A stretch of DNA of 60,550 nucleotides from Puniceicoccales bacterium (GCA_031268315.1 JAIRXK010000040.1:1-60550), one strand, 5' to 3'; counted from the stretch's first letter, positions 42,201-48,200 are shown. A program made the numbers and translations. The notes: generated from the letters alone by a model not told the origin.

Positions 42201-45200
42201 CATCGTCTATGTCAATGCTTACCTTTATACGCAAAAGTGCACGTGCCATTTTTCGAGAAACGTAATTGCCCGTCCGCAATGTGCGCATGGAATTAATAGT
42301 GGCCTGCGTTTTATTCACAATATCATTAAATTGGCGCACTGTCGGCTGCGTGGCTGCGCTAAGCTGCAAATATTGATGGAAAATTTGCATGTATTTTGTC
42401 CGTGCCTGGATCGCCTCAAATGAGTTTTTGCGGGGAGGAAGTCCCAATTGTCCAAATAGATATTCGGTGAGTGCTCCGTGTTTTTCTAAATAGTCAATAT
42501 CACCATTGAAAAAATGGGCCATCCAGCAGGCTTGGTCGACAAATAATTGAACCTTTTCTGGGACATCAACTTTCTGTGGCATCGTCGCCATGGCATGGCC
42601 CTGACTGCTATACAGTTGGCAATTAAGTAATTTCCCTTCTTCGATGGCCTTGCGGATGTATGGCGCATCGTCGTGAGATAGAAAATAACATTGCGGTTTA
42701 GCCGTTGCATCATTTGGATCAATGGCAATGAGCAAGTAATGCGCTGCCATGCGGTGACGATGAAAAAGTCCTGTGGCTGTGTTGGAGATTTGAAAAAAAT
42801 TCGGCGTTCCGTGGAATTGCTTGGCAAATGAGAAATTCCAAAGGTTTTGCACATCGCTTTTGTAAAATTGCTTCGCTGCTCCGAGGAGATCTTTTTTCTT
42901 CTCCGAGGCCGACGCGTCTGCTTCAGCAACGCTGCTATCCGCTGTCACTGCAACTCTTTCGCCGATAGTGGTTGCCGCACAACTTGAGGCCATATACTCC
43001 GTGCCCGATGTTGGCTCGGACGGAAGAATTAAGTGATCGGCTTTTTTGGGCTCATAGTTTGTGCCGCGAAATAGCTGTGGCCAATCACAAATGGCTGCAG
43101 CTATCTCCTGCTGCATTTGCATCTGCACCTGCACTTGAATTTCTGCCTGCTGGCCACTGCTCTCTATTGCATCGGCGGAGTCGCCACCTTCTCTATTTTC
43201 AAAGGTTAAAATTTTCCACTCTTCGGGAATGCGATCCAGGTATTGCTTCCATTCTCCATTTAAAATTTTTTTATCCGTTTTCGATAAATTTAAACGTATC
43301 TTATTCTCCGGATTAAGGAGTCTTTCCGCGGCCCGTGTGCAGGCTTGCTCCAATTGGGAAAATGCCATATTCCATGCTTTGTCAAGTGCTTCATGCGCGG
43401 ATAGAAATGTGCGTTGGTGGGTCCACTGATCAATGATATAGTGCTCCACATCAATGAATAATGCACGCATTTCCTGGCAAAAAGTGCAATACGGCAACCA
43501 CTCATCATCGCTAATATTAGGGGGCTTTGGTATCAATTCTTGCAATTTCTCCTTAGCAAACCGCCTAATGAGCCCTGAAATTTGCAGTTGGGTTGCTTGG
43601 ATAATTTGCTGCTCATCGTCGCAATTTCCTTGAAAAAGCATTCTGGCAAAGAGCTTTTTGGCGTTGATTTTTCCCTCGTCGTCGCATAATCTGAATAGCT
43701 CTGCGCCCTCCTGTTCGACGAGAACGTCCATGGTTTGCCCATTTTCGTTCAAAAAGCTGCGTTCACGGAGGAGCGCCTGCAGGGCAGATTCGGAGGTGGC
43801 ATGGAATGGGTTAATTAGCATGAGGCCAACGGCCCAGGGCGCCAAAAATGGATCAGAGCCAACAGTCCGTGCGCTGTCCAAAAATGTAAAAAGTTGAGCC
43901 GGATTTTTGGGCCGCTGAAGTTGTGGGTTTGTCAATGGCACCGATGTAAAAGAAATGCCATTTTCTAGAATGTCATCCAGCGTAGCGATGGCGAATTGAG
44001 GGGGAATCAATCGGGCATCAAAGTACTCAATGAATCTAACTTGATCATCATCGGAACAATGAAAATTAATAGAGTTGTGAATAAATCGCGCAATTTGCAC
44101 GATGGATTTGGGTAGGGATTGCTTTGACAGAGAAGCTCCGTGGTCGCAAATTAGACGCATTTTTTTAAGACGTTCCTTGTCGTCTCCTATGCCTGCTTGC
44201 CACAGATTTAGAAATTTTTTTGCGGTAGTAAGATTTTTTTTTGACGCAGTCACTATTTTAGAGCGTCCGTTTTCCACATCATCGCAAAATTTAGCGGCAA
44301 TTTTCCCAAGGGCTCCTTTTTGTTCATGAACGCATCCTAATTTATTGGGATAGGCGTCCCGATTGCCTATGGTTCCTGAAAATGCAACGGATGCACGCGT
44401 CAAATCAAGCAAGGAAACAGGCGTTGCCGAATTGGAGCAGGATGAAAAATCCGCCTGATCCAAGGCCATTTTAATGTTGATGTTCCAGCGGACTTTGCGA
44501 TTTAAATTGATAAGCTCCATGAGCTCATTCAGCGCAGATTCTTTAATGACTGGCTCGTACGCCAATACGCCTGTACCATTGCTGTTCTCTCTTTCGATTT
44601 CTTTCATTTCCACGGCATTAGAAAGCTTTAGATGATTTGTATTTTTGGTGTCTATTCCGAAGAGCTGGAGAAAATTTTGAGCGCTTGTCGTTTGATCCAA
44701 GGTTATTTCTCCCATCGTTTCCAGTGCCCCCTGTGATGCCATTTTTTCCACCAAATGGCGGACCGCTATGGGCGGAATGCCTCCAATTATGCCATTTAGT
44801 ATTGAATAGGTAATGGATTCATAGGGAGATCGATAGTAGGTTGTCATGGCTTTTTTATTGTGCAGAGGAACGGTGACACCGTCGTCGTTGGGCCCGTAGT
44901 CTTCGCCGCACTTCTTTGCAAAACATTGCGGCAATAACTTGGAGCAACTCATGTGCATCATGGCCAATGTTTCTCGCAATTGAGGACTGGTTAAATTTTT
45001 TAGCCACTGCTGAAATTCTTCCGATGGAATTTGCGACTGAGCACCATCAAAGTCACCGAGGACGAAGCAAATGAGTTCATTGCTTAGATCTTCGTTGTCA
45101 CCTAGTGGAAATTGCTGAATGAAATGGCGTTGAATTGTTTCTTTAAAGTACTCCCTCAGTTCCTCTTTTCCGAGCTGATCTTGCTGATTATTGCGCAGCG

Positions 45201-48200
45201 CATTGCGCGCTTCGTTGGGAAGACATCGGAGAAAATTTCCTAGAAATGTTATCTGCGAAGGCGATATCTGTTCTCTTATTCCCGCAATTGCATCCCATTG
45301 AATAATAAATGCTTCCGTGGGGCGCAGCGTTAAATGCACCTCATCCATTAGAGAAATGCCTTTAGTTCTTAGGAAATTAAATAATTCATTTAACTCCTGC
45401 AAATAGCATTTATCTTCATCGCTTAATTTACCCTCCTTTGCCGCTATGGCGTCGAAGGTTGCCATCAGCGATAGCGCGGTGTAGGAACTAACGACCGGCA
45501 CGCGGTCGCGCAGCCTATAAGCTGCCTGAAGACTTTGATAAAATATTCTAAGTCCCTCTAATGTTCTAAGTTCAGCGAATGGTGGATTCATAAATTCGAC
45601 GCGAATGCCAAAATTCCAAAGCAGCGCGGGAAGCTCGAACTGCAATGCTGGGATTTGCGTCACATGGGAAATGATTAGAGGAAGATTATTTCCCCTAAGA
45701 AGCATTTGCTGAATGAGGAAAGGCAACAAAACTTTCGTCTTTCCGCTACCCATAATTTGCTGCACCAGTATGCCAAAAGATTTTGCTGCAGTTTCGTCGC
45801 TCGGATTTTTACAAATTTGATCAATGATAAGTAGCAGCACTTCAAATTGGTCATCCCGCGGGCGAATGCGTGTTACGTATTCAAAGAGCAGCAAATTACC
45901 ACTAAGTTGATGGGCCGAATTGTCGGATTGCTCCGTGCGCAACGCTTTCAATAGGGGCAATGATTCATGGGTCCAAATATGCTGCCATTGACCTTCTCGC
46001 TCCCTAAGTACATTTCCCAGCGATTTTTCCAATGCACTCATTCTCCGCATGGCAATGACGCTGCTCAGATAGGATTCCATGTTGCACTGAAAATTCGATA
46101 AATCACTAGCCAAAAATCCCGGGTGAATGCGCTGAAACTCACGCAGTGCCACCGCCGTGTTGCCGGCAACCAGATACCCGTATATGCGGAGAAGTTCCGG
46201 CATGGTCATTTTTCTCCGACTATGGCTAGCAAAATGAGCATTACTTGCTGGACTATAGACATTTGCTACTAAATTTTTTGCCGCATTTTTTGCCGCATTT
46301 TTTGAGATTATTAGCTGCTCAGAAACGGTTTTTTTGAGAGTTTCAATCCGTATCAATGAATCTTTGTCAACGGGCTTGGATTGTAATTGCCATAGGTCGT
46401 TAAGTTGCTTTGCTCCGACTTCCATTTCTTCATTAAAAGCCTTTAAAATTTTCTCAAATCTTGCTCCAAATTGTGCCTTATCACCATGAGACAATTCGGG
46501 CATTTCTAATTCTGGTGCTTTAATTTTTTCGAAATTCCCAATTTCTCCCGGTGCGTCAGGAAAATTTTGTGCAAATTCTTTTGCAACAATCACTTCGCTG
46601 GTGCCATTAGGTGCTAAAATCGTCTGTGGCAGATTTAAATGAGCATTTTTCAGCAATTGATTTGCCTGTGCCATTTCCTCTTTTGCACGCTGCTCCAATT
46701 GCTTCTGCCGGTCAATAAATTTACTTCCCGTGTAGCTATCCCAGATGGCGTGTGCTTTTTCGAGAATGTCGCGCTGTTTTCTTTCACTTTTAGTAAGTTC
46801 TGCATTTTCTTTTGCAAGCTCGGCACTTGCCCTGTCATGCAATATCTGTAATTGAAAAAGCAGAAAAGATTCTTCTGCGGCAGCGAAACTGCCATAGGCA
46901 TCTTTGGCCATCAGTGTTCTGCTGTCATCTTCATCGGCGAATAAATTTTCGCAAAATTTTTTCCAAATGTCCCCATCATTTGCTATCTGCAGACCGTAGA
47001 TAATGCGCGCCGCATCGTCGGGTTTCGCCGATTGCAAGAGGCGCAGCATGGCCATTGCTGCTACAACGGCGCAGGGACGGTTATAGCGCTTGCCAATGGC
47101 GAACCAATTAATGATAGCCCCATAGGCCTCAACCGCTTCAGTCGACGCCGGCGAACTGGCAGGAAAGCGAGATAAAACAGCCATAGCCTCGTCATAGTGG
47201 TCATAGGCCAACTGCACATGGGCGTAGCGCAAAGCTGCAACGTCATTTGCAGGACGAATGTCTAGGGGCTCAAAATCCAGCGGATTGGAACGCACAATAA
47301 TTTCTCCAACCGTCGAGGAACCCCAAAAGGCTTTGCGGTTGGAAACATCCTCGAATTCTTCAATTAGAATTGATGGAATTTTTTTAGCGGCATCGAGATA
47401 TTTTTTTGGATTTCGATACTTGTCTTCGAAATCAAGCTTTTCATGCCGCGCAACCTCATCCGGATCAGGGGCATAGCCTATGGAAATTTTTGGTAGAAAG
47501 GCGTGGTAAGTTCCATTGTCCGCTATATTTTTTAGCCATAAAATTTTTTCATTGGATGCAAAAGGATTGCCTTTAAATGTCTTTTCCTCCATTGGTAACC
47601 CAATGGCATCGACGGCATGGAGACGGGGGTGGGCAATTAATTGCAATTTAGGGCTATTTTCCAAGATCCAACGTGGTTGTGGATCATTTTTTTTTACGTC
47701 TTCCGGGTAGCGAATAAAGCAAATCATGTTTCCCTTTGAATCAGTGTAGCGTGGGAATGTTACCATCTGCAAAGAGCCATTGCTATCCACAAGACGCAGC
47801 ATCGAGTTTCGATCCTCAAAATCGTGAAAAATGTCATCCTTATTCTGCTCCGCTTGCAGCGAAAAATCGAGGTAGAGGTCATCCTTACTATTCATCATCT
47901 TCAATCGGGGAGGGTGGTTACTATCGCTTTCGAAAATGACATCGGTGGCATTCTTTTCATCGCAGATTTGCATACATCCATCCTCGGCTACCCAGCTAAT
48001 AAAATCCGTGCCGGAGAAATAATCCACAGGCAACAGGCTCTTCATATCCGCCGGTGGTACATAGCGCCACATTTTTCCTTTGTCGTCCTTTCGAAAAATT
48101 AAAAATTTTTCCGATTCAATTTCATTCAACTGATTCCCGAATGCATCCTTTTTATATTGAATTACTCGTTGAATGGAAACTTCGCCAAGTCTCGCATCGT

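Follow-up and report, generated by a model that had tools for sequence, protein, structure and literature searches.

The 60,550-nucleotide stretch of DNA from a Puniceicoccales bacterium (GCA_031268315.1, JAIRXK010000040.1:1-60550; the whole stretch is referred to as the window hereafter) carries a giant open reading frame (ORF) of 4272 codons. The question raised by this locus is what the P-loop module inside the encoded protein is, and how it came to be there. The original prediction, made from the sequence alone, had noted three motif blocks at 44371-45891, likened them to the DUF3638 + DUF3645 pair of very large fungal and protist proteins, and suggested an inter-kingdom acquisition or mimicry by an intracellular bacterium. 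Our analysis indicates that the module is very probably a complete, apparently catalytically competent nucleoside triphosphatase (NTPase) motor of the superfamily 2 (SF2) type and of the DUF3638 lineage, as judged from sequence conservation and a structural model.

The motor module and its conservation

The giant ORF lies at 39220-52038 on the minus strand, where the translation is uninterrupted from a TTG start codon at 52038 to the stop codon at 39220-39222. The database copy of the protein (P0001, 100% identical) begins two codons later, at the ATG at 52032, and is 4270 amino acids (aa) long. The plus-strand translation at the flagged coordinates contains stops throughout. All the strings quoted in the prediction were found within this single minus-strand ORF, and the features of the protein described below are all on that strand.

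The first block comprises a helical lead-in with the Q motif (LLFEYVTRIRPRDDQ, aa 2050-2064, 45847-45891), followed by ILVQQIMGSGKTKVLLPF (aa 2090-2107, 45718-45771), which includes motif I, the Walker A sequence MGSGKT (aa 2096-2101, 45736-45753), and then by RVEFMNPPF (aa 2146-2154). The second block, ISLMDEVHLTLRPTEAFIIQW (aa 2228-2248, 45295-45357), includes motif II, the Walker B sequence DEVH (aa 2232-2235, 45334-45345), and the expected spacing of about 135 residues holds when it is counted from Walker A (residue 2097) to DEVH (residue 2232). An insertion of about 310 aa (aa 2238-2548, 44395-45327) separates motif II from the third block, VAFSGTIGN (aa 2551-2559, 44362-44388). The latter contains the motif III-like SGTIGN (aa 2554-2559, 44362-44379), whose T2556 is invariant and which aligns to the SGTIS of CHL1, an XPD-family helicase. 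Although the flagged blocks are real, the last one overruns position 44371 by 9 nucleotides, and the flagged span takes in just the initial two thirds of the conserved unit. The unit runs on to around aa 2790 (43669 in the window) and includes a second RecA lobe. The complete module of the DUF3638-type SF2 ATPase, as delineated by conservation, an AlphaFold2 (AF2) model, Foldseek and hhalign, extends over aa ~2044-2790 (43669-45909) in the order RecA lobe 1, insertion and RecA lobe 2. Lobe 2 contains the motif V region, FTFLDSARTVGSD (aa 2717-2729, 43852-43890), and motif VI, QALLRER (aa 2754-2760, 43759-43779), with R2758 and R2760 as the arginine-finger residues.

Conservation was examined in 48 relatives that span the full region, aligned from aa ~2044 to ~2790. 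Three features were found in this set. One is that Q2064, G2099, K2100, D2232, E2233, T2556, G2727, Q2754 and R2758 are each present in all 48 sequences, and R2760 in 47 of 47. Another is that the near-invariant columns are gathered in the motifs: L2050, F2052, E2053, R2061 and Q2064 in the Q motif; M2096, G2097, G2099, K2100 and T2101 in motif I; P2120, H2125 and Q2128 in motif Ia; G2555, T2556 and N2559 in motif III (SGT..N); and F2717, D2721, G2727 and D2729 in motif V. The last feature is that the arrangement is that of an SF2 protein, with motifs I and II in lobe 1, and motif III and the motif VI arginines (QxxxRxR) in lobe 2. The window protein retains every near-invariant motif residue, and therefore there is no sign of an inactivated motor.

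Placement in the DUF3638 family

In the scan of the window sequence against 24,736 Pfam models, DUF3638 (PF12340, cut-off 31 bits) was the sole model that touched the module, and it did so below its cut-off, while DUF3645 (PF12359, cut-off 25 bits) gave no match at E ≤ 10; the expectation that both Pfam models would be seen was thus borne out for the first one only at a sub-threshold score, and failed for the second. The relatives are far more informative. In an alignment of 19 sequences (A1), DUF3638 was matched by all 19 members (best E = 9e-24), and ten more distant relatives found by phmmer pass the cut-off, mostly comfortably (32-113 bits, with 113 bits in the relative P0083). When the profile of the 20 closest relatives was compared with nine Pfam-verified members by hhalign, the probability was 100% and E was 1.2e-59 over 557 columns, which include the insertion. 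Because of the A1 matches, the distant relatives above the cut-off, the hhalign result and the giant-virus structure matches described below, we consider the placement of the module in the DUF3638 lineage to be firm on both profile and model evidence, and the DUF3638 likeness noted in the original prediction is upheld. The same evidence makes the window module a diverged representative of a family that is known but unstudied: in a full-text literature search, DUF3638 was found only in incidental mentions, none of them on bacteria.

The situation differs for DUF3645. It was not among the families matched in the 19 A1 relatives at E ≤ 1, and the matches in relatives were all sub-threshold (15.7-21.8 bits; best 21.8 in P0119). 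These matches lie about 100-130 residues past the end of the DUF3638 match and about 125 residues past the DExH box, and they align to aa ~2385-2405 of the window protein, DDGVTVPLHNKKAMTTYYRSPYE. The counterpart here is DYGPNDDGVTVPLHNKKAMTTYYRSPYES (aa 2380-2408, 44815-44901), a hairpin inside the insertion with the signature YG..DG..VP..P..F..P.E, where position 2397 is Ala in the window protein and Pro in 41 of the 48 relatives. The FSGT element, which had been ascribed to DUF3645, belongs instead to SF2 motif III. The Pfam pair is accordingly half detectable in this protein, though a segment homologous to DUF3645 exists.

Predicted structure and its neighbors

The AF2 model of aa 2034-2796, which was built from the A1 alignment, had a predicted local distance difference test score (pLDDT) of 82 and a predicted template modeling score (pTM) of 0.65. 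It consists of two alpha/beta lobes parted by the insertion, whose predicted secondary structure is mostly helical with two beta-hairpins. In the Foldseek search against the PDB, the best matches were SecA (1.4e-5) and DinG (5e-5), followed by CasDinG, DdmD, XPD/Rad3 and RIG-I-like helicases, with template modeling (TM) scores of about 0.2-0.35. The matches at E ≤ 1e-3 were SF2 motors in 12 cases out of 12, in agreement with a two-RecA fold.

Much closer neighbors were found among the predicted viral structures of BFVD. The eight best matches were all from giant viruses (E from 4e-20 to 5e-13; query TM score, TMq, 0.49-0.60; 740-846 columns), their sources being Fadolivirus, Hokovirus, Hyperionvirus, Harvfovirus and a Megaviridae sample, and seven of the eight were named either "DUF3638 domain-containing protein" or "ubiquitinyl hydrolase 1". 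The DUF3638 structural matches are about 1e15-fold more significant than those to any solved helicase. The giants of this family occur in fungi, protists, microsporidia and the Klosneuvirinae/Megaviridae, where some of them have been automatically named "ubiquitinyl hydrolase 1" by UniProt. Likeness to them is seen in the lead-in, Walker A and the DExH region (Pfam matches in all A1 relatives) and, for the giant-virus copies, in the entire two-lobe fold of about 760 aa with its insertion (Foldseek E = 4e-20, TMq up to 0.60); the function is uncharacterized in both. The motor of the bacterial relatives is preceded by about 2000 residues, in proteins that are at least 3000 aa long, and fungal DUF3638 proteins have the same build. 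On the other hand, the window protein differs from these giants in its score under the Pfam cut-off, in the degraded DUF3645 signature (P2397A), in its bacterial host, and in two further parts, a hydrophobic segment predicted to span a membrane and a 780-aa C-terminal extension of its own.

Among solved structures, SecA (1tf2, 5eul) is the top match, and it shares with the module a two-lobe motor of the SF2 DEAD type with a large insertion between motifs II and III; in both cases the motor is placed at a membrane, that of the window protein through a predicted anchor. The accessory domain sits between motifs II and III in SecA (PPXD) as well as in XPD/DinG (Arch), and SecA has DEVD as motif II and TGT as motif III, where the module has DEVH and SGT. 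However, the TM score to SecA is about 0.34 with a sequence identity of about 10%, no SecA match appeared in the PDB sequence searches, and no likeness to the PPXD, HSD or HWD of SecA was demonstrated. The XPD/DinG/CHL1 helicases (9kqh, 7xex, 2vsf, 7ml0) were matched by Foldseek at E of 5e-5 to 1e-3 and by weak profile matches that include an SGTIS..YP alignment at motif III, and the insertion of the module is topologically where the Arch domain of XPD/DinG sits. These helicases differ from the module in that the TM scores are about 0.3 with marginal E-values and that the module has no four-Cys iron-sulfur (Fe-S) domain between motifs Ia and II. An XPD-type Fe-S helicase was excluded as a candidate: only a single Cys is present in aa 2100-2232, and since there is no Fe-S cysteine cluster, the module is not an XPD-type helicase.

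These data also bear on whether the module could be an ordinary bacterial SF2 helicase or restriction-enzyme ATPase (ResIII, DEAD/DEAH) that resembles DUF3638 only through the shared P-loop. ResIII was indeed matched in 13 of the 19 A1 relatives, weakly (best E = 3.7e-4), and DEAD in 2 of the 19, and the profile search against PDB sequences returned SF2 helicases only, again weakly (DEAD/DEAH and XPD-family, E 0.003-0.2). However, the ResIII and DEAD matches are many orders of magnitude below that of DUF3638 (for which that scan gave 9e-24, and P0083 scored 113 bits) and are confined to the Walker A region, whereas the hhalign comparison with DUF3638 members spans 557 columns including the insertion, and the structural matches favor DUF3638 by the factor given above. 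In addition, the NCBIfam and PADLOC searches (the latter at E ≤ 0.1) gave no matches, and the one Cys between motifs Ia and II does not make an Fe-S cluster. The alternative foreseen in the original prediction, namely that ordinary bacterial ATPases would be the best matches, therefore came out against such ATPases; at the family level it is effectively refuted, and we give it hardly any credence.

Relatives of the gene and its origin

To collect relatives, aa 1980-3100 were used as the query of an exhaustive phmmer run over 1.84 billion representative proteins; it gave 121 matches at E ≤ 1e-3, 51 at E ≤ 1e-10 and 28 at E ≤ 1e-30. Most of them are giant proteins of 2000-5200 aa, and the remainder are shorter or fragmentary. 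A word-indexed homologue search, made with the module and with the 19-sequence profile, was empty and missed even the window protein itself, probably because words of the Walker A sequence saturate its candidate list. The names of 30 of the 121 match clusters were looked up. Eleven of these 30 carried the name of an organism, all of them bacterial (10 Puniceicoccales and one Gammaproteobacteria), and several had already been labeled "DUF3638 domain-containing protein" by NCBI's pipeline. A locus scan with one genome per species found six loci, all of them in metagenome-assembled genomes (MAGs) of Puniceicoccales. The prediction that the closest relatives might be eukaryotic was thus contradicted by 11 of 11 organism-named clusters and by six of six loci, and no eukaryotic sequence was found among the organism-named relatives within the reach of phmmer. 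At about 22% identity, the relatives form at least eight clusters, and at least four of them hold Puniceicoccales members. One MAG, Gx481_bin188 (loci L002-L004), has at least three giant paralogues on separate contigs, with ORFs of 5202, ~3555 and 3433 aa.

The host itself is a Puniceicoccales (Verrucomicrobiota) bacterium represented by a MAG: the MetG encoded on the contig is 61-63% identical to that of Puniceicoccales MAGs, with Opitutales and other Verrucomicrobiota coming next. The window has no 16S gene. The giant gene has a GC content of 0.40-0.46, which falls inside the 0.40-0.49 spanned by the remainder of the contig. Sample codes of the MAGs, Kf353, Gsp477 and Ncb351, stand for the lower termites Kalotermes flavicollis, Glyptotermes and Neotermes cubanus (PMC11707648), and the relatives are mostly from Puniceicoccales of lower-termite guts. 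Endosymbionts belonging to the verrucomicrobial "Nucleococcus cluster" are known to live in the nucleus and cytoplasm of protists in termite guts (PMC8204192).

This setting gives some appeal to the idea that an intracellular bacterium recently took up the module from its eukaryotic host, for use in molecular mimicry. The papers that mention DUF3638 place it in eukaryotes, structurally matching copies exist in giant viruses of protists, the bacterial carriers come from the flagellate-packed guts of lower termites, and verrucomicrobial endosymbionts of protists are known from there. Nevertheless, the organism-named relatives are all bacterial, the presence of Puniceicoccales in at least four deeply diverged clades and of at least three paralogues in single MAGs points to long residence, the GC content of the gene does not leave the contig's range, the clade-specific motifs were absent from the IMG/VR viral contigs, and the window holds no sign of an intracellular lifestyle. 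Since the organism-named relatives are bacterial and fall into several deep clades, with paralogues within a genome and a GC content in range, a recent eukaryotic acquisition is not supported, and we regard it as quite improbable. The evidence, which consists of sequence comparisons, favors long residence and diversification in these bacteria over a recent capture from the host. Exchange at an ancient date, involving protists together with the giant viruses and bacteria associated with them, is plausible.

Layout of the giant protein and its predicted membrane tether

Outside the motor, a body conserved across the family extends over aa ~900-3230 (42349-49341) and consists of upstream helical regions, the motor, and a conserved downstream helical and small alpha/beta region. 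The N-terminal ~400 residues and everything beyond ~3300 belong to the window protein only and are not common to the relatives. The whole-protein Pfam scan gave a weak TPR match (TPR_19, aa 1592-1635) as its sole result, and phmmer found nothing among PDB sequences with any of four segments of the giant protein as query. The conserved region that follows the motor, aa 2790-3245, was modeled by AF2 with a pLDDT of 68.6 as helical bundles and a small alpha/beta domain; this model had no structural neighbor in Foldseek at E ≤ 1e-3, and Q/E-rich coiled coils were the only matches in the PDB profile search. A Q/E-rich alternating stretch, EIQVQVQMQMQQE (aa 2966-2978, 43105-43143), is located there, whose position is kept across the closest relatives while its exact sequence is not, and which AF2 renders as low-confidence coil or helix. 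Spurious PDB matches to nucleoporins and Spt20 arose because of this stretch. A protease or deubiquitinase (DUB) site was considered from the conserved Cys/His pattern farther upstream (H1040, C1103) and was dropped in view of its helical context and the lack of a model match. Neither DUF6606 nor a protease or DUB domain was found in the window protein or in the six whole relatives scanned.

A hydrophobic segment of 69 aa (aa 3421-3489, 41572-41778), preceded by an acidic, serine-rich linker, has a Kyte-Doolittle value of about 2.7 and is long enough for two or three membrane spans. This segment is a predicted membrane tether of the giant protein. It is followed by the C-terminal extension of ~780 aa (aa 3490-4272, 39223-41571), which is unique to the window protein and had no match among the relatives of the motor module, the Pfam models or the PDB sequences. 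A comparable hydrophobic segment was found in 32 of 92 long sequences scanned, with the window protein and some cluster members of near-identical sequence counted in, and nearly all of these segments are within the last ~100 residues. Since C-terminal hydrophobic segments recur in this way, membrane tethering may be taken as a recurrent trait of the bacterial branch. By analogy only, a long bilobed hydrophobic segment flanked by large soluble parts recalls the chlamydial Inc proteins and tail-anchored effectors, and so does the position of the segment at the extreme C-terminus in the DUF3638 relatives. The Inc proteins differ in that they belong to another phylum, that no type III secretion system (T3SS) context was found for the giant protein, and that the giant protein is vastly larger.

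Genomic neighborhood

The contig is an ordinary piece of bacterial chromosome. The genes gmk, mutL and lepB are upstream of the giant gene; tRNA-Phe, tRNA-Tyr, hisS, rlmD and a murE-murD fusion are downstream of it; and glgB, metG, cysS and a KDO transferase gene are found elsewhere on the contig. Looking up the exact sequence of the gmk product gave no record. The apparent MurE-MurD fusion is a single 921-aa ORF (33553-36318, minus strand) with a MurE match at aa 37-490 and a MurD match at aa 514-915. In the 146-nucleotide gap between gmk and the giant gene, a sigma-70-like promoter match, TAGACA-18-TATGAT, was found at 52121-52150 on the minus strand, where the number of such matches is not above chance. 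The tRNA-Phe gene (plus strand, 39131-39206) converges on the giant gene and lies 13 nucleotides beyond its stop codon, and the tRNA-Tyr gene (minus strand, 38786-38872) comes next. tRNA genes are common integration sites. The GC content gave no sign of a genomic island.

No conserved gene neighborhood was found across the six Puniceicoccales loci, the sole shared neighbor being a SurA-like housekeeping gene. In the window, this gene encodes a SurA_N_3-like protein of 435 aa (56147-57454, plus strand) about 4 kb upstream of the giant gene. Its homologue in MAG Gx481_bin188 (L004, 17675-18739; 28% identity, E = 1e-44) is about 4 kb downstream of a paralogous giant gene. The sharing of this neighbor by two loci is probably coincidental. 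A secretin gene at 9771-11804 (plus strand) encodes Secretin and Secretin_N domains with a weak, sub-threshold match to the N0 domain of the SPI-1 T3SS; within the window, no other secretion-system genes are beside it, and it is flanked by an ABC transporter and Pfam-less ORFs. Three further candidate ORFs, at 17140-18564 (minus strand, 474 aa), 22153-23499 (plus strand, 448 aa) and 9386-9913 (plus strand, 175 aa), had no Pfam match at E ≤ 1e-3.

Possible mechanism and cellular role

The module may work as follows. The two RecA-like lobes would bind and hydrolyze ATP at their interface, with the Q motif reading the adenine and GSGK-T together with DEVH binding Mg-ATP, and the SGT motif and the QxxxRxR arginines would couple hydrolysis to lobe closure, so that ATP binding and hydrolysis would close and open the lobes. 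The insertion of ~310 aa, with its invariant YG..DG..VP hairpin, would hold a polymeric substrate; because of its position, it is most likely a substrate clamp. The giant, largely helical scaffold of ~4270 aa would position the motor at a membrane, where the motor might remodel or translocate a polymer, either nucleic acid or polypeptide.

Several points weigh against the view of the module as a working DUF3638 motor at a membrane, and they are gathered here. The window sequence itself is below the DUF3638 cut-off (12.6-12.8 bits, E 0.07-0.09, versus 31 bits), and that of DUF3645 was reached by neither the window protein nor any relative. The closest solved structures, SecA and DinG, are remote (TM ~0.3). 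The protein outside the motor gave no functional clue, which makes any proposed substrate or cellular role conjectural. The literature on the DUF3638 family consists of incidental mentions and contains no biochemistry on its members.

Two roles were compared for the membrane-tethered motor. The protein may be kept in the bacterium as a cell-autonomous machine anchored in the cytoplasmic membrane, engaged for example in envelope or nucleoid remodeling or in a conflict or defense system. The strongly hydrophobic transmembrane segment, the location of the gene among chromosomal housekeeping genes with a possible promoter of its own, and the nearest solved folds, which include the membrane-associated SecA and the defense helicases CasDinG and DdmD, are consistent with this role. 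Nevertheless, no PADLOC defense model was matched, partner genes are not conserved across the six loci, and a housekeeping machine would not usually be distributed over eukaryotes, giant viruses and protist-associated bacteria. We hold this role only tentatively, as one that falls somewhat short of probable.

In the other role, the giant protein would be exported, with its hydrophobic hairpin in the membrane of the host (a protist), so that the motor and scaffold would face the cytosol of the host, much as in tail-anchored or Inc-like effectors. The sequence has no N-terminal signal peptide; the multi-lobed hydrophobic segment of 69 aa and the extreme C-terminal hydrophobic tails of the relatives would suit such an insertion; the family is common to eukaryotes and their giant viruses; the paralogues are expanded and quickly diverging; and the secretin on the contig has the weak T3SS-type N0 match. 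However, no secretion-system or chaperone genes flank the giant gene, the secretin is solitary, the export of a 470-kDa protein would be demanding, and a Kyte-Doolittle value of ~2.7 is hydrophobic enough for the bacterium's own membrane. On balance, this role seems unlikely.

A broader conjecture, which we regard as a rather long shot, is that the DUF3638 giants are a mobile class of membrane-tethered SF2 motors that circulate among protists, giant viruses and bacterial symbionts. The expanded, fast-diverging Puniceicoccales copies, including the window protein with its extra C-terminal domain, would then be exported effectors, which become embedded in membranes of the host and spend ATP on remodeling one of its polymers or organelles.

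Implications

The presence of DUF3638 in bacteria is not new to the databases, because homologues in GenBank have already been annotated automatically. What is new here is that the Pfam DUF3638 domain makes up just lobe 1 of a whole SF2 motor, which has a signature insertion of its own, that the DUF3645 signature is placed on a hairpin within that insertion, that a diverse, paralogue-rich and often tail-anchored branch exists in Puniceicoccales of termite guts, and that the whole fold is common to the giant-virus copies. DUF3638 proteins are among the largest uncharacterized proteins of fungi, protists and giant viruses, and to our knowledge neither a solved structure nor an assayed activity is on record for any of them. 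The complete motor, the bacterial branch and the predicted membrane anchoring together provide the family with a concrete mechanistic frame, as well as with intron-free genes that are a tractable starting point for biochemistry. If it is true that the bacterial copies are directed at the host, they would be giant effectors of a new class, at work in protist symbioses.

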